Of a DNA stretch of 64,000 nucleotides, positions 2,174-63,242 are shown piece after piece. A program made the translations under genes and the position numbers. A model generated the notes under the pieces. The model had not been told where the DNA came from. It saw only the letters and a program-made list of their open reading frames with translations, and did no database searches. The stretch's first letter is position 1; every line of letters begins with the position of its first letter. The stretch comes from an uncultured delta proteobacterium (GTDB lineage: Bacteria > Desulfobacterota > Binatia > UBA9968). Location of the stretch: NCBI GenBank assembly GCA_963840855.1, contig CAWJBB010000027.1, positions 32,001 through 96,000 on the forward strand, read 5' to 3'.

Positions 2174-2236
2174 GTTCAATGCGTTCAAAAAGTTCAAATC
2201 GTTCAAAACGGCTTGAACAGCTCGAACGGCTTGAAC
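2174..2236. repeat. Nonamer tandem inverted-repeat hairpin (GTTCAAnnn x4 / nnnTTGAAC x3)
   Basis: GTTCAA at 2174, 2183, 2192, 2201; TTGAAC/TCGAAC at 2213, 2222, 2231. Confidence 0.9.
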
Positions 2237-2242
2237 TGACCG

Positions 2243-3016
2243 CTAAGTTAGACTCAACCCGCCATCGACGATCAACGTCTGCCCGGTGACGAAATCCCCA
2301 CCGGTAATAAGTCCGAGAATCGCGCCGGCGATGTCTTCAGGGCTGGCGATGCGTTGCAATGGATAACCCGCGGAGGCGTTGGCGATCACCTGTTGGTAGT
2401 CGGCGCCGAAGTGCTGGCTCATCCATGGCGTGTCGGTGAACGCCGGCGCAACGCAGTTGACGCGGACCTTCGGCGCCATTGCCACGGCCAGCCCGCGGGT
2501 CATATAAATCAACGCTGCCTTCGCCGTACCATAAGCCAGCGACGACATCGTCGATGGCGCTAGCACGCCACTGATCGATGAAACGTTGACGATCATTCCC
2601 TGGCTCGCCTCTAACAACGCCGCCGCCGCCCGCGCGCAGCGGAATGCGCCTTTGACGTTGACATCGAAAATCTCATCCCAGATCGCATCCGTCAGGCCCG
2701 CCAAATCGGCGAGATTCACCCAGTGGGTCACGCCGGCACTATTGATGACAATATCGAGCCGGCCAAATGTTTCACCGATCTCGGCGATCGCGGAGCAGAC
2801 CTGCTCGTCGTTTTGAACATCGGCCTGAACAGCGACGGCTTTCACGCCACTGCGAGAGATTTCCTGGGCGAGTTCTTCGGCCTCCCGCCTCGACTTGCGG
2901 TAATTGATTGCGATACCGCTGATACCGGCCTTAGCCAGGCTACGCACCACCGCCCCGCCGATCCCGCCGGCGCCGCCGGTCACCAGAGCTACTCTGCCGC
3001 TTAATTCCACAAGCAT
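2243..3016 (-). CDS. SDR family oxidoreductase
   Basis: TGGAGGIG, NSAG, YGTAK motifs; start moved to ATG at 3016 (MLVELSGRVALV) because the ORF-track extension runs through a repeat. Confidence 0.9.
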   Translation of the reverse strand: MLVELSGRVALVTGGAGGIGGAVVRSLAKAGISGIAINYRKSRREAEELAQEISRSGVKAVAVQADVQNDEQVCSAIAEIGETFGRLDIVINSAGVTHWVNLADLAGLTDAIWDEIFDVNVKGAFRCARAAAALLEASQGMIVNVSSISGVLAPSTMSSLAYGTAKAALIYMTRGLAVAMAPKVRVNCVAPAFTDTPWMSQHFGADYQQVIANASAGYPLQRIASPEDIAGAILGLITGGDFVTGQTLIVDGGLSLT

Positions 3017-3030
3017 CCTTTCGGAATGAA

Positions 3031-3106
3031 GTCTCGGGTCCAGAGTCTTGAGTCTCGAGTCCTCTCCGACACACTGACAATCAGAATCAACTCTAGACGC
3101 CAGGCC
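3031..3106. repeat. Heptamer inverted-repeat element, GTCTCGA family (degenerate right arm)
   Basis: gtctcgg gtccaga gtcttga gtctcga ... ctctagacgccaggcc. Confidence 0.65.
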
Positions 3107-3123
3107 AACGGCCATCTTTATCC

Positions 3124-4860
3124 TTATCCTTTAGCCTTCATCCTTTCTCTCATCTTCTTCGTCTCCTCTTCGTCGATCTCCCAATCGCGCGGCAGTTTTA
3201 CAAGCGCGTCGGGCTTGCCTGTGAAACGTACGGCGACGCCATAGCTCTTTTCCGCTTCTTCGGGACCGACGTAACCTTCAATCACATCCCGCAGAACCAG
3301 CTCAGGCGCGCGCTCAAAAGCATTACCGTAGCCGCCGCCCCCCGGAAGATTCACATGAACGACATCGCCCCGCTTGAGATCCACCATTGCCTTGGCGTGT
3401 AAGCGCGTGCCGTCGCCAAGCAGCACTTCCCCCTTGGCGCCGCTACCGCCGCCGAGAAGGCCGGGCGCAGGATACTCGGTGCGGTCGGCGATCGAGCTAA
3501 CGCTCCACCTGCCCTCGCCCCGTCTGGTAAACTCCGTGAGTTGTCCCAACCCGCCGCGCCACTTGCCCGCGCCGCCGGAATCGGGGCGCAATTGGCGCCG
3601 TTGCAAAACCACCGGCGACAAACTTTCGATTACTTCAGCCGGCACGCCGGCAACGCCGCTGGGAAAGCCCACCGCGCTCAAGCCGTCTTTCGCGGGCCGC
3701 GCGCCGGTGCCGCCCACTTGAAAGATCGTCAGGGTAAAGGGTGGATTTTGTCCGCGCCAGACACTGAGCCAGATCGGATCGGCGCCGGGTGCCATCAAAC
3801 GGCCGGGCAGCGCCCCGGACAACGCGGCGAAAATCGCGCTGGGGATAAAGTGGCCGATCACCTGGCGACTTGCCACCGGCGCCGGATCGAGAGCGTTCAT
3901 GATACTGCCCGGCGGCGCGCTCACATGCACGGGGCGGAAGCTGCCTTCGTTGTGCGGCACGTCGGGGCAGATCGCCGCTTTTATCGCGAAGCTGGCGTAG
4001 GCGTGGGTGTAATTCAGCACGACATTTATACCGCGCGTGCTCTGCGGCGAGGAGCCGGCAAAATCGATGAAGATCTCGTCGCCCGCCACCTTCACGGTGC
4101 AGCGAATCACGATGGGCTCTTCGAAACCGTCGCTCCAGGTTTCGTTCGACCATTCTCCGCTGGGGAGTTTCCGAATCTCGCTCCGCACCGCAGTTTCCGA
4201 TCGCGCGATGATTTCCTCCGCCACCGGATCGATGCTGTCGAGAGCGAACTCCTCCATCATTTCGAGCAGCGCCCGGCCGCCGGCATCGTTACTCGCCGTC
4301 TGCGCATAAAAATCGCCGATGACTTCATCGGGCTGGCGCACGTTGGAGCGCACCAGCTGCATGAGAATACGGTTAGGCTCGCCGCGGTCGAACAACTTCA
4401 TGATCGGGATGCGCAGCCCCTCCTCGAAGACTTCGCGCGCTTCGGCGGAGAGAATGCGCCCGCCGATATCGGCGCTATGGCAAGTATTGGCAAACAGCGC
4501 CACCAGTTTGCCGTGTTTGAAGACCGGCGTGGTGATGGTAATGTCGTTGATCTGTCCGGCGGTTTGCCAGGGATCGTTGGTGATCAAAACATCGCCCGGC
4601 GCCATTTTGTCGGCTGGAAAGGCGGCGAGAAAATGTTTCATCGACGTCGCCATGGCGTTGATATGCCCCGGCGTGCCGCTCAGCGACTGCGCGATCATCC
4701 TGCCTTTGGTGTCGAACAAACCGCAGGCAAGGTCCTGGCTTTCGCGGACAATCGTACTAAAAGCAGTGCGAATGAGGGCGTCCTGCTGCTCGTTGGCGAC
4801 CGAAAGAAATCGGTTCCAGATGACTTCCAGGGTCACCGGATCCATGGCGTTATTTTGCAC
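3124..4860 (-). CDS. Hydantoinase B/oxoprolinase family protein
   Basis: DPVTLEVIWNR, AFSTIVRESQD, NDPW, HSADIGG, EEGLRIP, DSGGAGKWRGGLG, PGGGGYG. Confidence 0.92.
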   Translation of the reverse strand: MQNNAMDPVTLEVIWNRFLSVANEQQDALIRTAFSTIVRESQDLACGLFDTKGRMIAQSLSGTPGHINAMATSMKHFLAAFPADKMAPGDVLITNDPWQTAGQINDITITTPVFKHGKLVALFANTCHSADIGGRILSAEAREVFEEGLRIPIMKLFDRGEPNRILMQLVRSNVRQPDEVIGDFYAQTASNDAGGRALLEMMEEFALDSIDPVAEEIIARSETAVRSEIRKLPSGEWSNETWSDGFEEPIVIRCTVKVAGDEIFIDFAGSSPQSTRGINVVLNYTHAYASFAIKAAICPDVPHNEGSFRPVHVSAPPGSIMNALDPAPVASRQVIGHFIPSAIFAALSGALPGRLMAPGADPIWLSVWRGQNPPFTLTIFQVGGTGARPAKDGLSAVGFPSGVAGVPAEVIESLSPVVLQRRQLRPDSGGAGKWRGGLGQLTEFTRRGEGRWSVSSIADRTEYPAPGLLGGGSGAKGEVLLGDGTRLHAKAMVDLKRGDVVHVNLPGGGGYGNAFERAPELVLRDVIEGYVGPEEAEKSYGVAVRFTGKPDALVKLPRDWEIDEEETKKMRERMKAKG

Positions 4861-6931: not shown

Positions 6932-7023
6932 GTCTAAGTTTCAAGGTCTAGGGTCTCGTGTCTAGGGTCTAGAGTTACTCGTCCGCCACGCAAACCCGAG
7001 ACCCGAGACGCCGGACCCTGGAC
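6932..7023. repeat. Heptamer inverted-repeat hairpin, GTCTAGG / CCCGAGAC family
   Basis: gtctaag tttcaag gtctagg gtctcgt gtctagg gtctaga ... acccgag acccgag acgccgg accctgg ac. Confidence 0.85.
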
Positions 7024-11634: not shown

Positions 11635-12798
11635 ATGGCGAAAAATGGCTTCAGAGCGATGGATTCAGACATGCATGTCTTCGAGCCCGCCGATCTCTGG
11701 CAGCGCTACATCGACCCCAAGTATCTTGACCGCGCGCCCAAAGGGCTCAACCGCAGTTTCAGGGATCTGGGCATCGAAGTCGATGGAAAGATCTTGCCGA
11801 TACCGCGCCAGCCGGAGAACCCCGCGTTGGCAAAATATCGCCACGAATTCTTCACGGCAAAATACGGCGACGCGGGCAAGCGTAATTTCGACGGCGTTTC
11901 ACAGCTGCAAGCGATGGATAACGAAGGTCTGGATGTCGCCGTGCTGTTTCCAACCCGTGCATTAACCGCATTGGGCATTGACGGCCTCGACCCCGACTTC
12001 GCCACCGCCATCGCCCGCGCTTATAACGATTGGCTCCACGATTTCGCCCAGGCCGACAACAAACGCATGTTCGGCGTCGCTATGATCGCGCCCCATGACA
12101 TCAGCGGTTCCATCGAAGAGATGCGCCGGACGGTTAAAGAGTATGGCTTCAGGGGAATTTTTCTGCGGCCCAACCATGTAAATAACAAGAAGTGGAGCGA
12201 CGCCTACTACGACCCGCTGTGGGCGGAGTGCGAGAAATTGAACTTACCCGTTGGCTTTCACGAGGCGGGCCGGGTCTACCTGCCGCAACCCGCCTTCTTT
12301 CACATCTGTTCGACCTTTTCGATGTTCAACACCTTCGGTTTTCCTTTCGCCAACATGCTCGCCTGCGGCGACATGATCTTCGGCGGAGTCATGGAGCGGT
12401 TCCCAAAATTGAAAGTGGCGTTTCTCGAAGGCAACTGTTCATGGGTTCCCTGGCTCCTCTGGCGCATGGGCGAATACGCCGAGACGACGGGCCGAGCGGA
12501 ATATCCCGACTTAACCATGACGCCCCTCGAATACTTTCAACGGCAGTGCTACGGCGCCGTGGAATGCGATGAGATCACGGCGAAGCATATTCCCGAATAC
12601 GGGCTCGAAGACAACATGGTCTTCTCCACCGACTACCCACATCTCGACGTAAAGTATCCGCACGCCATCGATTCGTTTTTAAAAATGCCCTTCTCCGACC
12701 AAACGAAACGCAAATGGCTGTGGGACAACTGCGCCAAGATGTACAATTTTGCAGACGAAGACATTCATATCTCGATTTCGACGATGACCGGGGCGTGA
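11635..12798 (+). CDS. Amidohydrolase_2 family metal-dependent hydrolase/decarboxylase
   Basis: DSDMHVFEP, RAYNDWL, PVGFHE, FLEGNCSW, FSTDYPHLD; ATG at 11635 after AAGGAG. Confidence 0.88.
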   Translation: MAKNGFRAMDSDMHVFEPADLWQRYIDPKYLDRAPKGLNRSFRDLGIEVDGKILPIPRQPENPALAKYRHEFFTAKYGDAGKRNFDGVSQLQAMDNEGLDVAVLFPTRALTALGIDGLDPDFATAIARAYNDWLHDFAQADNKRMFGVAMIAPHDISGSIEEMRRTVKEYGFRGIFLRPNHVNNKKWSDAYYDPLWAECEKLNLPVGFHEAGRVYLPQPAFFHICSTFSMFNTFGFPFANMLACGDMIFGGVMERFPKLKVAFLEGNCSWVPWLLWRMGEYAETTGRAEYPDLTMTPLEYFQRQCYGAVECDEITAKHIPEYGLEDNMVFSTDYPHLDVKYPHAIDSFLKMPFSDQTKRKWLWDNCAKMYNFADEDIHISISTMTGA

Positions 12799-12932
12799 TC
12801 GGAGGGGCGCTCCTTGGCGCGCATGTCGCGTGCTTGCATGGACGCAAGACTCTTGCAATGCTTGCGCCAATTTCGAGCGATAGCAGCCAAGCGGACTTTT
12901 AGCGAGTTTACGTTCCAGGTCGCGATTTTCAT
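12765..12932 (-). pseudogene. xth: Collapsed exodeoxyribonuclease III remnant (55-aa ORF joining N- and C-termini)
   Basis: Translates MKIATWNVNSLKVRL...RDMRAKERPSDHAPVIVEIEI*; both ends are ExoIII signature segments; purine-rich leader GAGGGGAAGAAGG. Confidence 0.8.
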
Positions 12933-17634: not shown

Positions 17635-17777
17635 GTTCAAGGTTCAAAGTTCAAGGTTCAAAGTTGAATACGGAACTTGAACCCGAAGTTCGGAGTCTTG
17701 AACGGGGAGGGGGATCCGAAACCTTGAACTTTGAACATTGAACCTTGAACCGGCGTTCAGCACCTTGAACTTTGAAC
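17635..17777. repeat. Heptamer inverted-repeat hairpin, GTTCAAG / CTTGAAC family (compound)
   Basis: gttcaag gttcaaa gttcaag gttcaaa ... ccttgaac tttgaac attgaac cttgaac ... cttgaac tttgaac. Confidence 0.92.
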
Positions 17778-18680: not shown

Positions 18681-18705
18681 AGTGACTCCTAATCTGTCAG
18701 GCTTG

Positions 18706-18814
18706 GTTCAATGTTCAAGGTTCAACGTTCAAAGTTCAATGTTCGAACGTTTTCGCCCGTAGCCGTTCAAGGTTCCGAACTTGAACCTTGAACCTTGAAC
18801 ATTGAACCTTGAAC
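18706..18814. repeat. Heptamer inverted-repeat hairpin, GTTCAAG / CTTGAAC family
   Basis: gttcaat gttcaag gttcaac gttcaaa gttcaat gttcgaa ... cttgaac cttgaac cttgaac attgaac cttgaac. Confidence 0.93.
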
Positions 18815-18816
18815 TT

Positions 18817-21425: not shown

Positions 21426-21434
21426 CCGAAAGAA

Positions 21435-50638: not shown

Positions 50639-50728
50639 GTTCAAGTCGTTCAAGCCGTTCAAATCGTTCCAGCCGTCGAACAATCCGGCATCGTTTTGAA
50701 CAACTTGAACGGTTTGAACTTTTTGAAC
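50639..50728. repeat. Nonamer inverted-repeat hairpin (GTTCAAGYC / nnTTTGAAC), copy A
   Basis: gttcaagtc gttcaagcc gttcaaatc gttccagcc gtcgaacaatccgg ... ttttgaac aacttgaac ggtttgaac tttttgaac. Confidence 0.92.
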
Positions 50729-50800
50729 GTCGTGATTGGCGTGCCTTCGTGGTGATACCGTTTTTGTTTCTTGTGTTTAAATTCTTATCCTCATACTAAT

Positions 50801-50827
50801 GCCTGTTGCCTCTCGCCTATTGCCTAT
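50801..50827. repeat. Single heptamer arm (GCCTNTT family) abutting an ATG
   Basis: gcctgtt gcctctc gcctatt gcctat-ATG. Confidence 0.65.
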
Positions 50828-51822
50828 ATGAAATTCAGCCTGCACAGCGTCCACGGCGGCGTCAAAAACATCGACGAGATCCACAAGCGCGCCCGGCGCG
50901 CCGAAGAGCTGGCCTACCACGGCATCTTTCTCGGCGAAAGTCATTTGAGCTCAATCGACTCGTTCCAGACACTTGCGAGTTGCGCGATGATCACCAAACG
51001 CGTTCTCCTGGGCATCGCCGTTACCAATATGGTATTTCGCCATCCAACGGTTCTGGCGGGAGCCGCAGCGTCATTGAATGAGATTTCCACAGGCCGCGCC
51101 ATACTCGGCCTCGGCACCGGTGACGGCCCGGTTTATTCGCAAGGCCTAAAAGCCACGCGACTGCTTGAGTTCGAAGAAGGTGTGCGGCTCATTCGCCACC
51201 TCGTGCAAGGTAATCCGGCTCTATTTCCGACCGGAAAAGTCGGCATCGGTTTCACGATCAACAAACCGGCGCCGATTTATGTTTCAGCTGAGGGACCCAA
51301 AGGATTGCAGCTCGCTGGACGCTCGGCCGACGGCGTCATCCTGGGGACAGGTTTCGACCTGCGCGTTTACGAGTGGGGCAAGGAACAAATCCGCGCCGGC
51401 GCGGCCGAGACCGGACGCGACGAAAGCGCGATTGGCATCATCGCCGCCGGCATGCTCTGCGTGCGTAGCGACGGCGATGAAGCGAGAAGGATCGTCCGCA
51501 ATCGTATCGCCAACCGCGCCCATCACAATTTTCGCTTCACGTTGGAAACCGTGCCGCCGGACGAGCTCGAAGGCGTCAAGAAATTCATGGACGGCTTCGA
51601 CGTCATGCGGCCGATGGAAGATCGCGTTGACCCAGACTTGGTCAATCACTATCTCATTCACCGATTTTCAATCGCCGGTAATCCTGCGTGAATGCATTGA
51701 CACGCATCGAAGAGCTGAAAGCCGCCGGGGTGGAGCATCTTATGCTCACACCGGCGCGGAAAGTTTACGGCGAGACGGTCGAGGCCTTCGCGACAAAGGT
51801 AATGCCCCACTTCAGAACCTAA
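50828..51822 (+). CDS. LLM-class oxidoreductase, frameshifted near 51689-51702
   Basis: AEELAYHGIFLGESH, RHPTVLA, GRAILGLGTGD, LAGRSADGVI; removing two inserted bases gives GNPAECI.RIEELKAAGVEHL...VMPHFRT*. Confidence 0.82.
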
Positions 51823-51874
51823 GACCGCGCGCCCTCCCATCTCGCCCGTCGCCCAGCTCGGTAACGCACAGCTC

Positions 51875-52216
51875 TCAAAGCTTCTCATCCTCGGGCACAA
51901 TATCGGTCACCAGATCGCGGATCAGCGGCCGTTTCGGCAGCGGCTCGACGGTAATCATGTCGGGCGTGAGCTTGGCGATGCAGGTATATTCGACTTCGCC
52001 GTTAACCAGCGCCACGCAGGTCTTGCAGGCATTGGCGTTGATGCAGCTGTAGCGAATTGCCAGGGAGCTATCCAAGTGGCCCCGTATCCAGCGCAGCGCG
52101 TCCAGTACCGACATGCCCTCTTCATAGGGAACCTCGAAGTCATCGTACCGCCCTTGATCGCGGCGCGCGCCGCGCCAGACGCGTAGCGAGGTTTTTTTTG
52201 GCGCGCCTTCAGCCAT
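51875..52216 (-). CDS. 2Fe-2S protein resembling the N-terminal domain of SdhB/FrdB
   Basis: GMSVLDALRWIR, YSCINANACKTC...YTC, VEPL...IRDLV; no 4Fe-4S/3Fe-4S domain. Confidence 0.82.
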   Translation of the reverse strand: MAEGAPKKTSLRVWRGARRDQGRYDDFEVPYEEGMSVLDALRWIRGHLDSSLAIRYSCINANACKTCVALVNGEVEYTCIAKLTPDMITVEPLPKRPLIRDLVTDIVPEDEKL

Positions 52217-53915
52217 CGACGCCTGTCCTTCGATGCAATCGCACCGGCTCGGCCCAACGCGAAACGAGATTACCTTCGGTTAGCTCTAGTACCTGGTTTT
52301 TCAAAAATTCGCCGTCGCTCTCGGGAAAATCTTCGCGCTGGTGCGCGCCCCGGCTCTCCGCCCGCGATAGCGCCGAGACTACCACCGCCTCGGCTGTGGC
52401 CAACATCGCGCGCAGCTCGAACCAATCCTGGAGATCGAGATTGAATGATGCTTCGGCGCCGACGGCGGCATTCACGAGATCGTGATCGCGCATTTGTCTA
52501 ATACGCGACAGCGCCTTGGAGAGCTTAACGCCTGTGCGAAACGGCCCCGCCTGCTCCCACATGAGGTTTTGCAGTTCGATCTGCAGCGCGGCGGGACTCA
52601 CGGCGCGCCGTTTGGGCGCTGCACAGAGCGCTCGCATTCGGTCATGCGACTCGCGCGCCCACTCGATCTTCCAGAGCGCTTTGGCGTGGCGCGAATATTC
52701 TGCCGCCGCCGAACCGGCGCGGTGGCCAAAGACGAAAGCCTCGGTGATAGCGTTGCCCGACAAGCGATTGGCGCCGTTGGCGCCACCCACCGCCTCGCCG
52801 GCGGCGTAAAGTCCTTGAAAGCGGGTCGCCATTTGCGCGTCCACGCGAATGCCGCCCATGTGATAGTGCGCCATGGGGCCGACCTCAACGGGCGTCTTGG
52901 TGAGATCGATGCCATTATTGAGCAAGCGATCGATCACCGGCCCGAACGCGGCGCGCAGACTCGCTTCAGGCATATGGCGAAAGTCGAGGTAGGCGCCGCC
53001 GTGCGGCGTGCCGCGTCCCGCTTCTAATTCTTTCAAGATCGCGTAAGCCGCGATATCGCGGGTGGCGTTGTACTCGCCGAAATCGCTGCTGCCGTAACGG
53101 TCGATGAATTCCTGGAATTCACCGTTAAGCAACCTGCCGCCGAGTTTGTAACGAAACGGGTCCCACATGATCGGGTCCATGCCGACCAATCGCGGCGCCA
53201 GGTGGCCGATGGGAAAAAATTGCACGAACTCCATATCGATCAACTCGGCGCCGGCCCAGAGTGCCAGCGCATAAGCTTCGCCGCCCATATTCGCCGACGC
53301 GCTGTTGCGCGCATATAGCTTGGTCAAGCCCCCGGCGGCAAGAATCACGGCTTTGGCCTGCACGGTGACGAACTCGCCAGAGGCGATATCCAAGCCGATG
53401 GCACCCACAGCACGACCGTCCTTGGCGACGATTTCGATAACCGCGTGGTTACTGATGCGGTGGATTTGCGCGATTTCGCTGACCTTGCGCCTTAGCGTGG
53501 CGGCTACGGCGGGACCGGTGTTGAGAAAGTCGACGTAGCAGCAGCGCTTCACCCTATGCCCTGGCGCGTGCTCTTGCTTGATATGGCCGTCTTCACGCGC
53601 CCAGCGCGTACCCCATTGCTCCATCTCGAGAATACGCGCGGGCCCTTCTTCGCATAGAAGCGCCGACAGCTCCTCGTTGCACAGGCCGCGCCCGGCTTTC
53701 AGCGTATCGTCGAAGTGCAACGCCACGGAGTCCGGCTCTTGATGGCCCAGCGCCACGGCGACGGTCATCTGCGCCATGATGGTCGCGCCGCCGCGTCCCA
53801 CCTGGCTCTTATCGAGCAGAATGACGGAAGCGCCGTTTTGCGCCGCGGCGATGGCCGCGTACATGCCGGCGCCGCCAGCGCCAACGACGAGAACATCAGT
53901 AGCTAAATGGGGCAT
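52209..53915 (-). CDS. SdhA/FrdA/NadB-family flavoprotein (non-canonical active site)
   Basis: GAGGAG, DMEFVQF, HYHMGG, AAGE, GANRLSGN, ESRGAH. Confidence 0.85.
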   Translation of the reverse strand: MPHLATDVLVVGAGGAGMYAAIAAAQNGASVILLDKSQVGRGGATIMAQMTVAVALGHQEPDSVALHFDDTLKAGRGLCNEELSALLCEEGPARILEMEQWGTRWAREDGHIKQEHAPGHRVKRCCYVDFLNTGPAVAATLRRKVSEIAQIHRISNHAVIEIVAKDGRAVGAIGLDIASGEFVTVQAKAVILAAGGLTKLYARNSASANMGGEAYALALWAGAELIDMEFVQFFPIGHLAPRLVGMDPIMWDPFRYKLGGRLLNGEFQEFIDRYGSSDFGEYNATRDIAAYAILKELEAGRGTPHGGAYLDFRHMPEASLRAAFGPVIDRLLNNGIDLTKTPVEVGPMAHYHMGGIRVDAQMATRFQGLYAAGEAVGGANGANRLSGNAITEAFVFGHRAGSAAAEYSRHAKALWKIEWARESHDRMRALCAAPKRRAVSPAALQIELQNLMWEQAGPFRTGVKLSKALSRIRQMRDHDLVNAAVGAEASFNLDLQDWFELRAMLATAEAVVVSALSRAESRGAHQREDFPESDGEFLKNQVLELTEGNLVSRWAEPVRLHRRTGVDG

Positions 53916-53934
53916 AACCAAAATTATCGGCGCG

Positions 53935-54007
53935 GTTCAAGTCGTTCAAGCCGTCGAACAATCCGGACCACGTTTTAAACGACTTGAACGGTTTGAACTT
54001 TCTGAAC
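53935..54007. repeat. Nonamer inverted-repeat hairpin, copy B (close match to copy A)
   Basis: gttcaagtc gttcaagcc gtcgaacaatccgg ... ttttaaac gacttgaac ggtttgaac tttctgaac. Confidence 0.92.
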
Positions 54008-54071
54008 TTCGTTACGTCGTGCCTTCGTGATGAGAGCCATTTTAAATGCGGTTTCCTGATGACAGGGAGTG

Positions 54072-54812
54072 TTAACAGTCGTCAGTCAATCCGCTCTGCT
54101 GAAGTTCCCGCAACGCCTTTTTGGCCGCTTCTTGCTCCGACTGTTTTTTGCTGGGGCCTTCGCCGCGGCCAAGCACTCTGCCGCCAACAAAGATCTCCGT
54201 CACAAAGCGTTTCGCGTGGTCGGGGCCCTTTTCGGCAATCATCCGGTAAACCGGCGGCTGGCGAAAAAGCATTTGGCTGATTTCCTGAAGCCGGGTTTTG
54301 AAATCCCGCTGGCCGAGTTTTTTCTCGCCCAGATCCGCGCCGAAATAGCGTTCGACGATACGGAGCGCCGCGCCGTAGCCACCGTCGCGAAAGACCGCGC
54401 CGATGAGCGCTTCGAAAGCGCCGGCGAGAATGGATGGCTTGGTCCGCCCGCCGCTGCGCTCTTCGCCCTTGCCTAGGCGCAAGAACGCGCCAAGATTGAG
54501 TTGCGCTGCTTTCTCCGCCAGCACGTCGGAGTTCACCAGACCCGCGCGCATGCGCGACAGGTCGCCTTCGCTTCTTTCAGGATGGCGGCGGATCAATAGC
54601 TCGCTGACGGCGAGGTCCAGAACCGCATCACCGAGGAATTCCAAGACCTCGTTGTGGCCGTCGCTTGGGCTGCGCTCGTGGGAGACATGGGTCAAGCAGC
54701 ACTCGAGCAGTGTGGGATCGGCAAAGCTGTAACCCAGCTCGCCTTGCAGTTGCGCGAGTGAAGGCTCTTGTTTCACGCCGTTAAAATGCGTGAGCGGCGG
54801 CGCCGTGATCAC
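54072..54812 (-). CDS. rnc: Ribonuclease III
   Basis: NEVLEFLGDAVL, LGKGEE, FEALIGA, dsRBD DFKTRLQE...GPDH...SKKQSEQEAA. Confidence 0.95.
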   Translation of the reverse strand: MITAPPLTHFNGVKQEPSLAQLQGELGYSFADPTLLECCLTHVSHERSPSDGHNEVLEFLGDAVLDLAVSELLIRRHPERSEGDLSRMRAGLVNSDVLAEKAAQLNLGAFLRLGKGEERSGGRTKPSILAGAFEALIGAVFRDGGYGAALRIVERYFGADLGEKKLGQRDFKTRLQEISQMLFRQPPVYRMIAEKGPDHAKRFVTEIFVGGRVLGRGEGPSKKQSEQEAAKKALRELQQSGLTDDC

Positions 54813-56133
54813 CGACCGTGTTTAGCCCCGCGCCGGTCATTAAATGGCCGCGCAGCCAGCCGTTTTGCACTCCCTCGAGCTTTACGTTCACTTCCCGATT
54901 CGTGAGTTTCGGTTCATGGGGGAGCATCACCGGCAGATAATTTCGGCTAAATCCCCGGCAGAGGCCAGTCGCCTTGTCAGTTTTCTCTTCCACCAGCACG
55001 GAAACAATTTGGCCGAGAAATCCGGCGCAAAAGTTCCGTTTTTTTTGCCCGCCGAGCTCGCGCATTTTGTGCGCTCGGCGTTTCTTGACATCAGCGGGAA
55101 CATGCCCAGGCAACGACGCCGCGGCCGTTCCGCGCCGCTCGGAATACGGAAAAACGTGAAAATAAGTAAGCGGCAGCGACGCGAAATATCCCAGCGAACT
55201 TTCGAACTGGGCATCGCTCTCAGCGGGGAACCCGACGATGATATCGCTGCCAATGGCGGCATCCGGCAAACGCTCGCGCACCTTGACTAACAGTTCGCGA
55301 TAATACGCCGTGTCATAATTGCGGCGCATCTGTTTGAGAATCCCATCATCGCCGGCTTGAGCGCAGACGTGCAAATGGGCGCAGATGACTTCGGAGCCGG
55401 CGATCAAGTCCAGCAGACGGTCCGGCACTTCACGTGGGTCAAGAGAGCTTAGTCTCAGGCGCGGGATCAAACCGCTCTCGGCGATCATTTCCAAGAGGTT
55501 GGTTAAATCCGTTTTCGGATCTAGGTCCTGACCGTAGCTGCCCAGGTGAATGCCCGTAACTACGATTTCGCGATAGCCCGCGCCCGCCAGCGCGCGCACC
55601 TGTTCGAGAACTTCGCGGGGCGAGACGCTGCGGCTTAGACCGCGCGCCGCGGGAATAATGCAATAGGTGCAAGAATAATTGCAGCCTTCCTGAATTTTTA
55701 GAAACGCTCGGGTACGTCCCGGCAGCGCCCGCGTGCCGAGCACCGGTACGCCGCGCTCGCGCCTGACCTCGCTCACGGCGATCACCGCCTCGCGCGGCGG
55801 CCCGGGCATATCGACAAAACGCAACAGGTCATCGAGGCGATTGAGGCCAACGACGTAATTCACTCCCGGCACTCGCGCGACCTCCGCCGGGCTCACTTGA
55901 GCATAACAGCCGGTGACTATGACCTGTGCCCCGGGATTGGCGCGTTTCGCCCGCCGCACCAACTGGCGCGCCTCCCAATCGGCGCGGTCCGTTACGGTAC
56001 AGGTGTTGATGACGTAACAATCGGCCGCTTCTTCGAACCGCACGAACGAGTGTCTGTCCTCCAGACGGTTTTGGATCACCGCGGAATCATACTGGTTGAT
56101 CTTGCAACCGAGTGTGGTGATGGCAATGCGCAT
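54781..56133 (-). CDS. mtaB: tRNA t6A37 methylthiotransferase
   Basis: TLGCKINQYDS, INTCTVT, KIQEGCNYSCTYC, HVFPYSERRGT; start reassigned to ATG 56133. Confidence 0.92.
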   Translation of the reverse strand: MRIAITTLGCKINQYDSAVIQNRLEDRHSFVRFEEAADCYVINTCTVTDRADWEARQLVRRAKRANPGAQVIVTGCYAQVSPAEVARVPGVNYVVGLNRLDDLLRFVDMPGPPREAVIAVSEVRRERGVPVLGTRALPGRTRAFLKIQEGCNYSCTYCIIPAARGLSRSVSPREVLEQVRALAGAGYREIVVTGIHLGSYGQDLDPKTDLTNLLEMIAESGLIPRLRLSSLDPREVPDRLLDLIAGSEVICAHLHVCAQAGDDGILKQMRRNYDTAYYRELLVKVRERLPDAAIGSDIIVGFPAESDAQFESSLGYFASLPLTYFHVFPYSERRGTAAASLPGHVPADVKKRRAHKMRELGGQKKRNFCAGFLGQIVSVLVEEKTDKATGLCRGFSRNYLPVMLPHEPKLTNREVNVKLEGVQNGWLRGHLMTGAGLNTVGDHGAAAHAF

Positions 56134-56139
56134 GTTTTT

Positions 56140-56205
56140 ATTTTGGATTTTTGATTTTCGATTCAATCCAAAATCCCAAATTATCCCAAATCCAAAATCT
56201 AAAAT
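56140..56205. repeat. Heptamer inverted-repeat hairpin, TTTTGGA / TCCAAAA family
   Basis: attttgg atttttg attttcg att c aatccaa aatccca ... aatccaa aatctaa aat. Confidence 0.88.
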
Positions 56206-57266
56206 TCTTTGATCGCCTTTTCAATCCATCCTCCGCCCAGCACTGCTTCGCCGCGATAGAAAACCGCGGCCTGTCCCGGGGTCACCGCGGGGAAGGCTTC
56301 TCTGAAGCGAACTTCGCAGCTATCGGTCCGTGCATGGCGGATGACACAGGAAACCGCCGGCGCGCGGTAGCGGATCTGCACTTCGGCCTCGACTTCGGCG
56401 CCGCCCGGATCGTCGTGCCAATTGACGGATCGGGCGGTTAACCCCGCGCAGCTTAGTTCTTGCTTCTTGCCTACGACGACGCGCCTGGATCCTTCATCGA
56501 TATCGACAACGTAAAGCGGCTCAGCCGCCGAAATTCCCAATCCCCGGCGCTGGCCGATGGTCACGCCGTGAATGCCGCCGTGCCGTCCAAGAACTTTACC
56601 CGACCGGTCGACGACGTCACCGCCGCGAAGCTCGTTCTCCTCCGCGTAGGTTGCGACCAATGCCTTATAATCGCCGAAGCAGATATCCTGACTTTCCGGG
56701 CGTTCCGCCGCCGCCAATCCGAACCGCCGCGCCAACTCGCGCACCTCGCTCTTTTGCATCTCCCCCAACGGGAGCAGCGTGCGCGTCAGATGCTTCTGGG
56801 ACAACGCAAACAGAAAATAAGACTGGTCCTTGCTGCGGTCGGCGCCGCGCAATAACGAACTTCGGCCGCTGTCGCCGTGCCGTGCGATCCGTGCATAGTG
56901 GCCCGTGGCGAGGTAATCCGCCCGCCGCTCTTTGGCCCACTTGAGCAACATGCCGAACTTGAAATCTCGGTTGCACGCAACGCAAGGGTTTGGCGTGCGC
57001 CCGTGGAGATAGTTCTCGGCAAACGGCTTCACTACCCTGTCGGCAAATTCGGCGCGCAAATCGATCAGCGTGTGGGGTATGCCCAACTCCGCCGCGATTT
57101 CTTTCGCGCCGCGATGATCCGAGCAGACGCGCGGCCCGGCGTTTCCTTCCCACATGCGCAGTGAAACGCCCAGCACCTCATAGCCCTGCTCGACAAGCAG
57201 CGCGGCGGCCACCGAGCTATCTACGCCGCCGCTCATGGCAACCACCACTTTTTCTCTATTGAACAT
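56199..57266 (-). CDS. mnmA: tRNA 2-thiouridylase
   Basis: AMSGGVDS, TPNPCVACN, ATGHY, KDQSYFL, ESQDICF, TPGQAAV. Confidence 0.95.
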   Translation of the reverse strand: MFNREKVVVAMSGGVDSSVAAALLVEQGYEVLGVSLRMWEGNAGPRVCSDHRGAKEIAAELGIPHTLIDLRAEFADRVVKPFAENYLHGRTPNPCVACNRDFKFGMLLKWAKERRADYLATGHYARIARHGDSGRSSLLRGADRSKDQSYFLFALSQKHLTRTLLPLGEMQKSEVRELARRFGLAAAERPESQDICFGDYKALVATYAEENELRGGDVVDRSGKVLGRHGGIHGVTIGQRRGLGISAAEPLYVVDIDEGSRRVVVGKKQELSCAGLTARSVNWHDDPGGAEVEAEVQIRYRAPAVSCVIRHARTDSCEVRFREAFPAVTPGQAAVFYRGEAVLGGGWIEKAIKEF

Positions 57267-57322
57267 ACACCAATATTCCTGGCAGCCGCTCTTGACCGAT
57301 CTGCAGGTTCGCGCACTTCGAA

Positions 57323-57394
57323 GTTTCTAGTTCCTAGTTTCGGGTTTCTAGTTTTCGAATTTAAACTAGAAACAGGGAACCTGAAACTAGAAAC
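57323..57394. repeat. Heptamer inverted-repeat hairpin, TTTCTAG / CTAGAAA family
   Basis: gtttcta gttccta gtttcgg gtttcta gttt ... aaactag aaacagg gaacctg aaactag aaac. Confidence 0.9.
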
Positions 57395-57402
57395 CGATTG
57401 AA

Positions 57403-58137
57403 TCAGTTCCCCGTATTCCTGAGCAGCTCTTTCACTTTGTTTAGAACTTCGCTCTCCTCGGCGGTTTTTTCCTCGAGCCCGCCTTGGCGCGCATTCAATT
57501 CATCGATCTTCTTTTCTAATTTTTCAACATAGTCGGCCAGGCTGCCGATCGCTTTAGCGATTGGGTCGGGCAGGTCGGCTGAGTTGAGGTCGATAATCGC
57601 TTTGCCTGTAGGCGTATGCCTCGCTTCGATCTTTACGATTTTGCCCGGGACACCCACCACCGTGGAGTGCGGTGGCACGGAGGTCACGAGCACCGAGCCG
57701 GCTCCCACCCGGCTATGGCGACCGACGGTCACCGGACCAAGAACTGCCGCTCCGCTGAAAATCGTGACCGAATCCTCGATCGTGGGATGACGCTTGATTC
57801 GCTCGGTCGACGTACCGCCGAGCGTGACACCCTGGTAAATCGTCACATCGTCGCCGATTTCGGTGGTCTCACCGATAACGACACCCATACCGTGGTCGAT
57901 AAAAAAGCGCCGGCCGATTTTCGCGCCAGGATGGATCTCGATACCGGTAAGGAAGCGGCCGATATGGCTCACGAAGCGCGCCAGGGTAGTGAGTTGGCGC
58001 TGCCATAGCCAGTGCGCCAGCCGGTGCAACAGGATCGCGTGAAAACCAGGATAAGCAAGCGCGATTTCCCACAGCGACCGCAATGCGGGGTCGCGCTGGG
58101 AAATAACTTGGATATCTTCTTTAAGACTGTTCCACAT
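57403..58137 (-). CDS. cysE: Serine O-acetyltransferase
   Basis: [39 protein letters not shown]. Confidence 0.95.
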
Positions 58138-58148
58138 GACGAGTGGGA

Positions 58149-58226
58149 GCGAGGCGTGAGGCGTGAGGGGTGAGAAAGAAATGGTCTATCCGTTCCCTCT
58201 CGCCTGTTGCCTTCCGCCTCTCGCCT
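58149..58226. repeat. Heptamer inverted-repeat hairpin, GTGAGGC / GCCTCTC family
   Basis: gcgaggc gtgaggc gtgaggg gtgag ... ccctctc gcctgtt gccttcc gcctctc gcct. Confidence 0.85.
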
Positions 58227-58233
58227 GCCAATC

Positions 58234-59814
58234 TTAATTGGCCCGGTGCCGCTCCTCCTTGTATAGCTTGTAATCGATGCTGTCCACCAGTGCCTGCCAG
58301 CTCGCCTCGATAACGTTATGAGAAACTCCGACTGTTCCCCAGCGGTCCTTGCCGTCGCCCGACTCGATCAACACCCGCACCATGGCGCCGGTGCCTTCGC
58401 CCGACGACAACACGCGCACCTTGTAATCCAACAGCTCCACCTGTTTGAGCGACGGATAAAACTTTGTCAGCGCGCGGCGCAGTGCCTGGTCGAGCGCGTT
58501 CACGGGGCCGTTGCCCATGGCCGCGGCGTGCTCCATCACGCCATCGACCTGCACCATGATGGTGGCCTCGGAGATCGGCGGCTCGCCTTCTTTGCGCTTC
58601 TCATCGATGACGCGAAAGCCCAGCAGGCCGAAGTTTTTCTTTTTTTTGCCCAGCGCCTCTTGGATCAGCAGCTCGAAAGACGCCTCAGCCGCTTCGAATT
58701 CGTAGCCCTGGCTTTCCAGCTCCTTGGTGCGGCGCAGGATATCGTGAATCGCTTCGCCTTTGTCGGTAAGATCGATACCATACTCTTTCCCCTTGTAGAC
58801 GACGTTGCTCCGGCCGGAAAGGTCTGAGACCAACACCCGCTGCCGGTTGCCGACCAGGTCGGGATCGATATGCTCGTAGGTCTCGCGGTTCTTGAGCACC
58901 CCGGAGACATGCAGCCCGCCTTTATGCGCGAAGGCGCTGTCGCCCACATAGGCCTGGCGCTTGTTGGGCTGAAGATTCGCCAGTTCGTAAAAGAGATGGG
59001 AGACCTCGCGCAGTTTCTTGAGCTGCGCCGGTTTGACGCAATTTTTCCCCATTTTCAATTGCAAATTGGCAATCACCGAAACCAGATTCACGTTGCCACA
59101 ACGCTCGCCGAAACCATTGATCGTCCCCTGTACCTGGGTAACGCCCATCTCGACGCCCGCCAGCGTGTTGGCCACGGCCAGCTCGCCGTCGTTATGGCAG
59201 TGGATGCCGAGGGGCGTCTTGACGGTCCGATTCACATGGCTGAGCGCCTCGCGAATTTCACCCGGCAGGCGCCCGCCGTTGGTGTCGCAGAGCACGATCC
59301 AGTCTGCACCGCCTTCTTGCGCCGCCTTGAGGCATGCCAGCGCATAGTCGGGATTGGCGCGGAAGCCATCGAAAAAATGCTCGGCGTCGAAAATCACTTC
59401 GTCCACGCGCCGCTTGATGAAGGCGATGGAATCCGCGATGACCTCCAGGTTTGCCTTCTGGCTGATGCGCAGGTCATCGCGCACATGCAGGTCCCAGGTT
59501 TTTCCTACCAGGGTAACCACCGGCGTACCGGCGTCGAGCAGCACTTTCAAGTTCAAGTCCTGCGACGGTTTCGCGCCGGGCTTGCGGGTGGTCCCGAAGG
59601 AAGCGATCTTGACGTTTTTCAACTTGAGCGTTTTCACTCGCTTGAAAAAATCGGCGTCGCGAGAATTGGAGCCGGGGTATCCGCCCTCGATGTAATCGAT
59701 GCCCATCTCCGCCAGCTTCTCCGCAATGCGCAGCTTGTCTTCGAGGGTAAAAGAAATGTCCTCGGCCTGGCAGCCGTCCCGCAAAGTCGTGTCGTAGAGC
59801 AGTACGTCCTTCAT
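58234..59814 (-). CDS. cimA: Citramalate synthase
   Basis: [48 protein letters not shown]. Confidence 0.92.
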
Positions 59815-61034
59815 GAGTTCCCCCGCTTCCCAATAAACGCGTCGTGCAGCGCGCGCACCGCCAGTTCCGTGTACTTCGCCTCGACGACCACGGAAATCTT
59901 TATTTCCGAGGTCGAGATCATTTCAATATTGATGCCTTCGGCGGCCAGAACTTCGAACATCTTGGCCGCAACCCCGGCATGAGTGCGCATGCCGACGCCC
60001 ACGACGGACACCTTTGCGATATCCGTGTCCACCATTACGCCTTGGGCGTGCAGGAGCGGAACCATCTTTTCCACGATGGCCAGCGCTTTCTTGTGATCGG
60101 CTTTCGACACGGTGAAAGTCAAGTCGGTGGTGCTGTCTTCGCCGGCGTTCTGAATGATCATGTCCACGACGATATTGGCTGCGGCGATGGGACCGAAAAT
60201 TTGCGCCGCCAAACCCGGTCTGTCGGGGACGCGCTGTAGCGTAATCTTCGCTTCATTCTTGTCGTAGCTCACGCCGGAAACCAGCACCTCGTCCATGCTC
60301 TCGTCCTCCTTCACCAGCCAGGTCCCTTCGACATCGCTAAAGGTCGAGCGCACATGCACCGGGACCGAAAATTTCTTGGCGAACTCAACGGACCGGATTT
60401 CCAATACCCTCGCCCCGGCGCTGGCCAGCTCGATCATTTCGTCGTAGGAAATGCGCCGGAGTTTTTTTGCATCGGGGCAGATATCGGGATCGGTGGTAAA
60501 GACGCCCTCCACGTCGGTGTAAATCTCGCATGCCTCGGCGTTCAAAAACGCCGCCAGCGCCACCGCGCTGGTATCCGATCCGCCGCGCCCGAGCGTGGTG
60601 ATATTATCGTCTTCATCGACTCCCTGGAAGCCGGCGACGACGACCACTTCTCCCGCCTTTAATGCGGCGTGAATTTTGGTCGAGTCGATGGTCTTGATGC
60701 GCGCCCGGCCGTAGGCTTTGTCGGTGCCGATACGGACTTGATGGCCCAGATACGAGCGCGCCGGTTGGCCCAACTCTTTCAGTGCCAAGCTGAGCAACGC
60801 CACCGACACCTGTTCCCCGGACGCGAGCAACACGTCTTTTTCGCGCTCGTCGGGTATCTCGGCAATCTGCAGCGCCAAGCCCACCAAGCGATTGGTTTCT
60901 CCCGCCATAGCGGAAACGACGACGACGAGGTCGTTTCCCGCCCGCTTGGCGGCGCGGATCTTTTCCGCCACATGTTTGATGCGATCTATCGAGCCGACGG
61001 AAGTCCCGCCATATTTTTGTACCAGCAACGCCAA
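59811..61034 (-). CDS. lysC: Aspartate kinase
   Basis: [26 protein letters not shown], two ACT domains, STSEIKIS. Confidence 0.95.
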
Positions 61035-61056
61035 TTATCTAGCCCCTGCAACCTAT

Positions 61057-61551
61057 CTATGACAACCCTTGAACTTTGAACCGATTATTGCGCAATGCTT
61101 CTACAACCCTTTCATATCGGGCACCGTGCGCGCTAAACGTTAACCTGCGACGGGCCGCGCCGGCGTGGGTCAAATTCACTTCGAGAAACTCCTCGGTCTC
61201 ATCCGCCGGCAGGTATTCAAACCATTCCACCAAACAGACACCATCGCCGTAGAGATACTCGCGCAGATTGAGCCCTTCCTGGTCCGTGCGGCCGCTTACG
61301 CGGTAGAGGTCTATGTGGTAGACCGGCAAGCGGCCGTGATACTCATTGATCAGCGTAAACGTTGGGCTGCGAATCCAGGCTTTTTCACCTACCCCCAACC
61401 CCTCCGCCACACCGCGCACGAGACAAGTTTTGCCCGCGCCCAGCTCGCCCCTAAGGCCAATGATGTCACCGCCTTCGAGCAACTGTGCTAATTTCTTGCC
61501 GCAACTTTTGGTCTGGCGCTGAGAATGACTTATAACGCTCCAGGCACCCAT
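61057..61551 (-). CDS. tsaE: t6A biosynthesis ATPase
   Basis: GELGAGKT, SPTFTLINEY, HIDLYR, VEW. Confidence 0.93.
   Translation of the reverse strand: MGAWSVISHSQRQTKSCGKKLAQLLEGGDIIGLRGELGAGKTCLVRGVAEGLGVGEKAWIRSPTFTLINEYHGRLPVYHIDLYRVSGRTDQEGLNLREYLYGDGVCLVEWFEYLPADETEEFLEVNLTHAGAARRRLTFSAHGARYERVVEALRNNRFKVQGLS
61067..61082. repeat. Two GTTCAA-family heptamers inside the tsaE 3' end
   Basis: ccttgaac tttgaacc encodes part of RFKVQG on the minus strand. Confidence 0.6.
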
Positions 61552-61605
61552 CTAAAGAGCGATCTCCATAAGCACAACTAATATATTTTGCGGGAGATTT
61601 CGAGA

Positions 61606-63162
61606 CTATGCGGCGGGCGCCGAGAGGGCACGCATGCCGGCGGGCAGGTCGTCGATAATATCCGAAGCAACGAGACCGATCTCGCCTTTTTTCTCCGCAA
61701 CGCGGTCACCGACGAAACCGTGGAGAAAAACCCCGAGCTTCATGGCGTCTTCCGGGTTAAGTCCCTGGCCCGAGAACGCCGCGAGCATTCCGGCGAGAAC
61801 ATCGCCCATGCCGCCGCTTGCCATACCTGGGTTGCCGGTGGGATTGATAAAAATCTTTCCGTGGGGAGTGGCGATGATGCTCCTCGCCCCTTTGAGAACC
61901 ACATAGCAGCGATGCTTGACCGCAAACTCGCGCGCGACGCCGACACGATCTTGACTAATCGCGGCGGTTGTTTTGCCGATCAGGCGCGCCATTTCGCCGG
62001 GATGAGGGGTGAGAAGCGGCGGAGTTTTGGCGCTTCTCAGACGGTCTAAGTCAAGCGCGAGATTATTGAGCCCGTCGGCATCGATGACCCACGGGATGTC
62101 TAGATTTCTCAGCAGCCATCGAAGCGTATTTCGCGTTGCGTCGTTAACGCCTATGCCCGGACCGAACAGCAGCGCATTTTTCCGCTCCAGCAGGCGCAGC
62201 CAATGCTCCGGCGCCAGCTCTTCCATTTCCTCGTCGCTAGTTTCCGGCAATGGCTCAGTCATCACTTCCACCAATGAACTGGCGAAAATATTGTTCAACG
62301 ACCGCGGCGCGGCTAGCGTTACGAGCCCCGCTCCGGCGCGCGTCGCGGCGCGGCACGCGAGAACCGCCGCGCCGGTCTTGCCTCTGGCACCGGCGATTAC
62401 GAGCAAATGGCCGTAGGTTCCCTTGTGCGTGTCCGCCCGCCGGCGCGGCACGAGCCACCTGATCTCTTCGCGGGTGAGCACTTCAGTCGCTGGCGCCACC
62501 GCTTCCGCCGCCAATGGATCGATACCGATATCGGCCACGACCAGATCGCCGGCGAAGTCGATACCCGGATGAATCACCTGCCCGAGCTTGGCATAACCCA
62601 GCGACACCGTCATTTCCGCTTGGATTGACACACCCAGTGGCGTCCCCCGGTTGGTGTCAAGACCGGAGGGAATATCGACGGCGATTATGGGAACGCCGCT
62701 GGCGTTCATCAGTGTAATCGCCTCGGCATAGAGCCCGCCGACCTCGCTTTTGATTCCAGTCCCCAGAATCGCATCGACTAACAAACCCTTGCCGGCGACC
62801 TTCCGCTCCAGGGTTTCGAGACCGCCCGCGGTAATCTCCGTGACTTTGCCCCTGAGCTTTTCAAAGGCGCGGCAGTTATGCGCGGCATCCGGTGAGAGTT
62901 CGGCGCGCTTGGCAAGGAGCGCCACTTCGCATGGGATTCGTTTCTTCTTGAGCAGACGAGCGACGACAAGCCCGTCGCCGCCGTTGTTGCCTTTTCCGGC
63001 AACGATGAGGACGCCTTTTTTCGCGGCGGCGGCAAAGCTCTTGAGAATGGCCGCTGTAATGCCTTCACCCGCGCGCTCCATCAGTGTCAGGCTAGGAACG
63101 CCGTGCTTTTGGATCGTCAATCGATCCATCTCGCGCATCTGTTCGGCGGTGACAACTAGCAT
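61606..63162 (-). CDS. nnr: Bifunctional NAD(P)H-hydrate epimerase/dehydratase
   Basis: GKGNNGGDG, DAILGTG, VDIPSG, HKGTYG, DADGLN, TPHPGEMARL, GGMGDVLAG. Confidence 0.95.
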   Translation of the reverse strand: MLVVTAEQMREMDRLTIQKHGVPSLTLMERAGEGITAAILKSFAAAAKKGVLIVAGKGNNGGDGLVVARLLKKKRIPCEVALLAKRAELSPDAAHNCRAFEKLRGKVTEITAGGLETLERKVAGKGLLVDAILGTGIKSEVGGLYAEAITLMNASGVPIIAVDIPSGLDTNRGTPLGVSIQAEMTVSLGYAKLGQVIHPGIDFAGDLVVADIGIDPLAAEAVAPATEVLTREEIRWLVPRRRADTHKGTYGHLLVIAGARGKTGAAVLACRAATRAGAGLVTLAAPRSLNNIFASSLVEVMTEPLPETSDEEMEELAPEHWLRLLERKNALLFGPGIGVNDATRNTLRWLLRNLDIPWVIDADGLNNLALDLDRLRSAKTPPLLTPHPGEMARLIGKTTAAISQDRVGVAREFAVKHRCYVVLKGARSIIATPHGKIFINPTGNPGMASGGMGDVLAGMLAAFSGQGLNPEDAMKLGVFLHGFVGDRVAEKKGEIGLVASDIIDDLPAGMRALSAPAA

Positions 63163-63163
63163 G

Positions 63164-63242
63164 GTTCAAAGTTCAAAGTTCAAGGTTCAAAGTCAAGCCG
63201 TGCAACGAGAGATTCGTTGAACTTGAACGTTAAACCTTGAAC
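63164..63242. repeat. Heptamer inverted-repeat hairpin, GTTCAAA / TTGAAC family
   Basis: gttcaaa gttcaaa gttcaag gttcaaa ... gttgaac ttgaac gttaaac cttgaac. Confidence 0.92.

Follow-up and report, generated by a model that had tools for sequence, protein, structure and literature searches.

Intergenic hairpins built from tandem 7- to 9-base units are probably gene-less relatives of small gene-carrying cassettes

A 64,000-nucleotide (nt) window from the genome of an uncultured delta proteobacterium (positions 32001-96000 of contig C27, CAWJBB010000027.1, in assembly GCA_963840855.1, hereafter G000; 7.1 Mb in 93 contigs, 94% complete and 8% contaminated) carries a set of short hairpin-like elements in the gaps between its genes. 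Each has two arms, an array of tandem 7-9-base units and, beyond a spacer, an array of reverse-complement units. A preliminary description, made from the letters of the window, listed 15 two-armed elements and two single arms, all of which we find to be present, and proposed that they are either empty versions of a small gene-carrying cassette or RNA-processing signals. Here we compare these hairpins with loaded cassettes, in which arms of the same kind enclose a small protein gene, in G000 and related genomes.

Arm families are named from their repeat units: A from the unit at window 17635-17641, together with 8- and 9-mer forms (for example at 50639), C from the unit at 57323, D from 6945, H from 56140 and I from 58151, while families B, E, F, J and K have no full copy inside the window. 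The features of the window are listed below in window coordinates, with no strand assigned; z is the folding score computed against dinucleotide shuffles, and the remaining terms name the supporting test.

2172-2236: family A, 9-mer, two arms with a spacer of nearly nil, between an SDR gene and an aldolase gene; z -4.5
3031-3146: composite of family D arms, one decayed, and an outer arm from a different family; z -0.3
6932-7023: family D, 7-mer; scan, fold, arm match
12760-12770: empty site, the whole element missing here to within about 2 nt; comparison with G001 and G002
17635-17751: family A, 7-mer, four units in each arm, inner 5-nt motif at 17715-17719; z -7.1
18705-18825: family A, 7-mer, its outer edge bearing a short remnant of another family; z -10.0
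21434-21499: family C, 7-mer; scan, fold, arm match
24234-24300: family A, 7-mer; scan, fold
29365-29455: family A, 7-mer, divergent genes on either side; scan, fold
38930-38994: decayed, family A-like, convergent genes on either side; z -1.4, under the automatic-scan threshold
50639-50728: family A, 9-mer, forming with its flank a 120-nt composite copied to several sites; scan, fold
50740-50755: remnant end of a GxxExxY-armed family F element; 16 of 16 positions identical
50796-50827: single right-hand arm, family I, outside the 50639 element (first listed at 50801)
53935-54009: family A, 9-mer, after rnc, 85% like the 50639 composite; scan, fold
54017-54029: short family F end remnant, weak; E 0.055
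56135-56205: family H, 7-mer, occupying the mnmA-mtaB gap from the mnmA stop codon; no loaded partner found
57322-57394: family C, 7-mer, cysE-mnmA; scan, fold, arm match
58149-58226: family I, 7-mer, cimA-cysE; scan, fold
61067-61082: single right-hand arm, two units, family A
63164-63242: family A, 7-mer, pdxJ-nnr; scan, fold

An automatic scan recovered 13 of the 15 two-armed elements. Eleven of them fold with z between -3.3 and -10 and two with z about -2.3, and those at 3031 and 38930 fold no better than shuffles. An Rfam search of the window gave no match on the elements. Its sole match was an S-adenosylmethionine (SAM) riboswitch (RF00162, 90.6 bits, 36477-36587, forward strand) upstream of the gene at 36651. 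There is no ribosomal RNA (rRNA) match in the window either, and the elements lie between protein genes, not inside an rRNA gene.

Genome-wide, repeat periods of 7, 9 and 8 gave 534, 355 and 110 arrays with a score of at least 10, compared to 28, 26 and 35 for control periods of 5, 10 and 11; the 7-mer and 9-mer periodicity first described holds, and 8-mer families exist as well. By our own simple gene calls, 490 of the 534 period-7 arrays are intergenic. A reverse-complement partner lay within 250 nt of 569 of the 952 intergenic arrays, as against 2.5% of random intergenic windows and 38 of 952 arrays when the complemented arm was used. Merging gave at least 434 short two-armed elements with a median length of 86 nt, a lower bound from a scan that by design covers mostly intergenic arrays and includes some duplicated contigs. 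These represent about a dozen repeat families, with 424 copies grouped into 16 arm clusters. The scan for arm families covered periods 7-9; a further family with a period of about 10-11 escapes it and often encloses family F copies (L047 18040-18380, L041 3280-3310). Other, non-periodic palindromic repeat families occupy the same gaps and sit inside some elements (for example L011, L016, L032, L035 and G000 C33:71234).

The arms have an almost fixed hand, as had been noticed within the window: in the main 7-mer family the partner of the left-hand arm lies downstream in 141 cases and upstream in a single one, and only 17 of the 424 clustered copies show the mirror order. Placement required a correction. 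The statement that 13 of the 15 elements lie between co-directional genes is right for the window, but the genome-wide bias is mostly background (308 of 431 elements, 71%, versus 67%, p 0.06). With 82 elements in convergent and 41 in divergent gaps, it is the divergent gaps that are depleted (41 of 431 versus 18% background, p 7e-7), so that the real bias is against divergent promoters. Among the 308 co-directional elements, the upstream stop codon is at most 15 nt from the element start in 168, and 137 of the 189 elements with room to choose are nearer the upstream stop than the next start. We also considered an intrinsic terminator, a short GC stem followed by a U run, and rejected it: no terminator-like site falls on any element within 50000-64000, and T-rich tails follow 7 of the 308 elements compared to 18 in the mirror control.

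The anatomy of the arms suggests recognition sites. Four units are the preferred length of a 7-mer array (215 arrays, against 114 with three and 36 with five; two-unit arrays, broken ones included, number 323), and arms hold four units plus part of a fifth. Duplicated copies differ by the gain or loss of entire units. Identical neighbouring units are avoided in 7-mers (25 of 410 versus 110 expected) and in 9-mers (4 of 407 versus 45 expected), and the variable base shows no covariation across arms (53 of 250 Watson-Crick versus 67 expected). We infer that these properties fit arrays of recognition sites better than a stem under selection for perfect pairing or the products of fresh slippage. 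In 185 of 395 spacers, across families, there is a 5-nt inner motif identical or close to the one at window 17715-17719 (control 61 ± 8). It adjoins the inner edge of an arm, with mixed orientation on the messenger RNA (39 versus 48), and at 71 loaded loci it lies 3' of the gene in 13 and in the reverse form in 4.

The same arms enclose genes. The cargo first guessed, small four-helix-bundle or GxxExxY-type proteins, proved correct on both counts (TIGR02436 and TIGR04256, respectively): the former is PF05635 (E 7e-37) and the latter PF13366, a PD-(D/E)XK family. A profile search of G000, covering intergenic DNA and small genes, found six four-helix-bundle loci, two intact (on contigs C12 and C19) and four broken, and two intact GxxExxY genes (on C55 and C83), with periodic arms adjoining; a third, decayed GxxExxY copy was recognised by eye. 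Among 61 genomes of the bacterial family, TIGR02436 is present in 56 and TIGR04256 in 24. From 106 four-helix-bundle loci fetched, 71 full-length ones remained once partial genes and short flanks were dropped; at 60 of these 71, and at 25 of 30 GxxExxY loci, the pairing of the flanks exceeds that in every one of 30 shuffles. Eight of the 16 clusters, holding 347 of the 424 gene-less copies, match loaded four-helix-bundle arms with the same hand (cosine 0.78-0.92); for families B and F the match, made by inspection, is to GxxExxY arms. Family H and three small clusters found no match among the loaded arms. Long-spacer arm pairs less than 600 nt apart were right-hand in 14 cases versus wrong-hand in 3, and their spacers hold only the two cargo families or no recurrent gene. 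Beyond about 600 nt pairing is at chance (pairs up to 2.5 kb: 56 right-hand versus 41 wrong-hand), and large cargo was therefore rejected. The cargo proteins also match models of Avd, a protein of diversity-generating retroelements encoded beside a reverse transcriptase and a template repeat, below cut-off (PF22296 E 2e-4, NF033474 E 5e-13); there was no reverse transcriptase among the cassette neighbours scanned, and no genome-wide search for one was made.

Arm word follows protein subfamily. At 59 loci with usable arms, arm words were shared in 62% of 202 different-genome pairs with protein identity of at least 55% and in none of 46 same-genome pairs with identity below 45%, and on a quick tree 24 arm groups required 28 changes versus 42.9 when shuffled. 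Since related loci do not count as independent, and a good many of those in family A are orthologues lying after lexA, the result shows gene and arms travelling as a unit and does not imply co-evolution. Side observations on loaded loci are as follows. The family A cassette lies directly after lexA in many genera, with an arm period of 7, 8 or 9 (L092, L099, L100, L102, L106-L109), and may be co-transcribed with the SOS operon. In G000 the lexA-linked gene (C21:59860-60490) is frameshifted, with a 7-mer left arm and a 9-mer right arm. About 95 nt split a four-helix-bundle gene at C40:72282-72727; the interrupting stretch ends in an arm of family A, and its borders may carry a 5-nt direct repeat. 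The loaded cassette at L081 (G065) directly precedes a truncated glutamate racemase-like gene, of which just the last third is present (residues 179-266 in the homolog from G000), an arrangement that suggests a deletion beside the cassette.

Loaded, gene-less and absent states can be followed at individual sites. In C13:18257-18411 the spacer still has the gene's first and last codons, in a single frame, and G008 carries the whole gene between the same arms before the same glutathione synthase gene. Likewise, the spacer of C19:23923-24092 retains 21 N-terminal codons (E 6e-19) and the C-terminal end, and in G004 the gene is complete and has the same upstream neighbour. Both deletions fuse the gene ends in frame. 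At window site 12760, the congener G001 carries a complete GxxExxY gene flanked by 30-nt arms, in G002 similar outer ends surround other hairpin pieces without the gene, and G000 has no element, giving a loaded, gene-less and absent series. The empty site allows at most a 3-4-nt repeat with extra changes as target duplication. Beside it, window 12765-12932 (reverse strand) is a remnant, with a large internal deletion, of a gene that we take from sequence likeness to be exodeoxyribonuclease III-like; G001 and G002 have a longer gene. Given the shared arms, the shared hand and the two deletion remnants, we are confident that hairpins of the window type derive from gene-carrying cassettes, as the preliminary description had suggested.

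Gene-less forms have also been copied. An 80-nt family F element occurs in 27 copies, 89-100% identical, at 25 unrelated sites and in both orientations, and shares its outer ends with an intact GxxExxY cassette on contig C55. None of the 21 family F copies with exact ends has a target-site duplication of 4 nt or more. Spacers common to unrelated sites were found in 17 of 28 cases for family B and 11 of 12 for F, with none in shuffles, in 54 of 187 for A and in 2 of 54 for all others. Recent copying is clear for the nuclease-armed families B and F and weak or old for the four-helix-bundle families, and these data show copying of gene-less forms for B, F and part of A.

Comparison with relatives revealed rapid turnover at fixed gene junctions, including the unit switching that had been predicted. 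At cimA-cysE, a two-armed element is present in at least 11 of 21 genomes of the bacterial family, with several different words, and in none of 12 genomes of two other families (both by eye); G001, whose CimA is 98.5% identical, has 8-mer family E where G000 has 7-mer family I. The cysE-mnmA and mnmA-mtaB junctions behave in the same way. The junction of the 2172 element carries a 7-mer form in G002, that of the 6932 element other units in G001, G002 and G003, and that of the 21434 element an 8-mer family A element in G001. We compared G000 systematically with 451 kb of G001, roughly one-eighth of its assembly, on contigs picked by number or synteny. Of 261 junctions, 23 have an element in both genomes, 16 in G001 only, 4 in G000 only and 218 in neither (odds ratio 78). 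Thirteen of the shared sites agree in family and period and 10 differ; in 3 of these the unit in G001 is unassigned. Gaps that share an element have an intergenic identity of 0.53 and element-free ones 0.89, in genomes whose genes are 96% identical. Losses often leave a one-arm stump. Contigs from four soil DNA runs gave mostly repeat-induced joints, with one 21-nt and one 90-nt deletion at elements, each seen in a single contig, and were not used as evidence.

Together, these results lead us to favour, as the probable explanation, that the hairpins are gene-less cassettes, likely non-autonomous, recognised and copied in trans by cassette proteins. A cassette would comprise two inverted arrays of about four 7-9-base units each, enclosing a four-helix-bundle or GxxExxY nuclease gene. 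Gene-less forms would arise by internal deletion, as in the two cases in hand, and then spread as passengers, inserting just after stop codons with no target duplication needed. Long hairpins would be tolerated there and less so in promoter regions. The arrangement would be a helper-and-passenger system like that of repetitive extragenic palindromic (REP) doublets, or REPINs, and their RAYT genes, but with periodic arms and non-transposase genes. Each protein subfamily may bind its own unit: a solved four-helix-bundle homolog (PDB 2GSC) has 5 chains and is described, as the Xanthomonas homolog, as a homopentamer (PMC4990558), and such a five-subunit ring would suit arms of four units plus part of a fifth. 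GxxExxY, a putative nuclease, would be the likeliest active mobiliser here, since its two families show the clear recent copying. A change of family would come about through insertion of a new element into or next to an existing one, with later deletion of the older arms. On whether the cassette proteins themselves do the copying, we regard the case as evenly balanced.

Several observations weigh against this explanation. Gene remnants were found in only 2 of 254 spacers tested, one weak on its own (E 2e-4 and 0.02). At 24 of the 71 four-helix-bundle loci, the direct-orientation control of the pairing test also beat shuffles. The link between protein and arm may be co-inheritance alone, given the many orthologues after lexA and the quick tree. 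Families with an intact four-helix-bundle gene (I and J) are small and share no spacers (0 of 11). For A, the largest family, the assembly has a broken cognate gene (after lexA), and for families C, D, E, H and K it has none (completeness 94%). The idea that recent copying depends on a cognate gene was dropped: the pooled contrast (82 of 238 versus 2 of 43) is confounded by family size, as a subsample of 18 lowers the shared-spacer fraction of family A to 5%. Nesting as a way for sites to change family is suggestive only, with lone arms of another family outside an element, the 50801 arm among them, pointing inward 20 times and outward 9 (p 0.06, not significant) and a stricter version leaving 2 cases. 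We know of no catalytic activity for the four-helix-bundle proteins, and mobilisation, binding and excision by cassette proteins are putative steps. Finally, the 120-nt composite at 50639-50762, which joins families A and F and has three copies in G000 and five in the 451 kb of G001, crosses family borders yet was copied whole, and gene conversion fits it too.

The composite is an argument for an alternative that we consider unlikely, in which the gene-less copies come from cassettes but multiply with no protein dedicated to the task, through gene conversion or recombination among the many intergenic repeats or through a foreign transposase acting on hairpin ends. It would also account for the lack of target duplication (0 of 21) and for the several families that persist without a cognate gene, and the genome does contain 10 Y1 transposase (PF01797) matches and other palindromic repeats in the same gaps. 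Conversion, however, would not easily give what young family F displays, sharp ends at 25 sites with unrelated flanks, and copying is most clearly recent in the two families whose nuclease gene is intact. Only 1 of the 10 Y1 loci has a periodic arm within 900 nt, which speaks against a RAYT link; no related transposase was found, families other than Y1 not having been searched.

In a second alternative, the host keeps a long hairpin at certain gene junctions as an RNA-processing or stability signal cut by RNase III, so that any family serves and the sequence turns over while the site stays filled. Shared occupancy above chance (23 junctions with both, 20 with one only, 218 with neither; odds ratio 78), the 168 of 308 elements starting within 15 nt of the upstream stop and the stable folds would all follow from it, and the Coxiella intervening sequence, which shares the gene family and tandem heptamers, is RNase III-cut (PMC4990558). 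Hot or tolerant insertion sites would also yield shared occupancy, however, and a signal read in RNA sits poorly with variable positions that do not covary and an inner motif lying either way on the messenger RNA. Copies are often lost, the pattern of one repeat family ranges from 0 to 410 matches among the 61 genomes with its maximum in this genus, and the 12 genomes of the two other families lack the cimA-cysE element. We consider this role quite improbable, and it is not needed to explain the data.

Far less probable still is a reading of the arrays as paired sites at which global transcription regulators bind. Arrays of direct repeats that leave one position free do resemble such sites, and the family A cassette follows lexA; a LexA-box reading was dropped because the element spacing does not fit LexA boxes. 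The depletion between divergent genes (p 7e-7), the 137 of 189 elements nearer the upstream stop and the swapping of words at core operons all argue against regulation, which has been proposed for the arrays of Geobacter metallireducens (PMC2700814). Independent, slippage-born microsatellites or contingency loci that pair by chance would explain the gain and loss of whole units between duplicated copies but are refuted by non-identical neighbours, fixed polarity, pairing of about 60% versus 2.5-4% in controls, lengths peaking at four units and spacers shared between sites, and we give them the least credence of all.

MITEs (miniature transposable elements with inverted repeats) of bacteria are short, gene-less and bounded by terminal inverted repeats, with dispersed near-identical copies. 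The hairpins share the terminal inverted repeats and the near-identical dispersed copies, but unlike MITEs they show no target-site duplication and no related transposase in a search limited to Y1. The cyanobacterial short tandemly repeated repetitive (STRR) sequences are intergenic tandem heptamers, as are TAACTGA-type arrays. The latter, in Beggiatoaceae, Cyanobacteria and Bacteroidetes, resemble ours in being intergenic heptamers of two to six copies, but are described as single direct arrays before start codons and almost never inverted pairs (PMC4679880). The heptamers of Xanthomonas and Nostoc show a four-unit preference, ordered inverted pairs, positions near stop codons and few copies between divergent genes; 70-75 inverted pairs are reported and read as G-quadruplex sequences in stable regions, and the term "helix bundle" does not occur in that text (PMC4692102). 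Here, by contrast, there are many families, none based on G-tracts, and turnover is rapid. The hepta- and octamer arrays of Geobacter metallireducens (classes 1-4) likewise have 3-5 units, opposite-strand pairs at variable distance and several families in one genome, and the accessible text interprets them as regulator binding sites with no link to a cargo gene (PMC2700814). The gene-less architecture is therefore already in print for single genomes under other readings. In the literature covered, which excludes subscription papers, we found no description linking paired arrays to these cargo genes.

Two systems come nearest in mechanism and gene content. As in REPIN/RAYT systems, inverted doublets form hairpins enriched in extragenic space, each of several sequence groups in a genome goes with a gene that has that repeat on its flanks, and gene-less copies far outnumber the gene (PMC3116915). 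The arms here are tandem direct 7-9-mers where REPs are short palindromes (PMC3116915), and the genes flanked are TIGR02436 four-helix-bundle or TIGR04256 PD-(D/E)XK genes, not Y1 transposases. The 23S rRNA intervening sequences of Coxiella and Leptospira that bear an open reading frame (ORF) carry an S23p/PF05635 gene in the loop of a long stem, as do the loaded forms here but not the window copies; in Coxiella, tandem heptamers precede a decaying ORF, and the sections of the report available to us describe no copies outside rRNA (PMC4990558). The elements described here lie between protein genes, are mostly gene-less, number in the hundreds and include GxxExxY versions. They are well supported as gene-less cassette forms and, by the tests run, are not REPINs, MITEs or rRNA intervening sequences, though they work like the first and share a gene family with the last. 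To what is in print the window contributes family replacement at fixed core-operon junctions, a single-genome map of arm family to protein subfamily, the finding that neighbouring units tend not to be identical, and the loaded, gene-less and absent series at one site.

To our knowledge, PF05635 and GxxExxY/PF13366 are widespread families without a known function. The elements join these two loose ends to a third, the unexplained excess of heptamer repeats in bacterial genomes (PMC4692102). For annotation, such hairpins are not to be labelled riboswitches, terminators or regulator sites. The pairing of subfamily with word offers matched and mismatched substrates and possibly a natural code of repeat recognition. 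More tentatively, and with somewhat more doubt than conviction, we suggest that the elements form an undescribed class of mobile DNA. Dozens of protein subfamilies, four-helix-bundle rings and GxxExxY nucleases, would each read a 7-9-base word of their own and copy matching hairpins without a transposase, and the families would compete for the same gene junctions and replace one another there. If true, this class would explain the bacterial heptamer excess, and the rRNA intervening sequences would be one special case of it.

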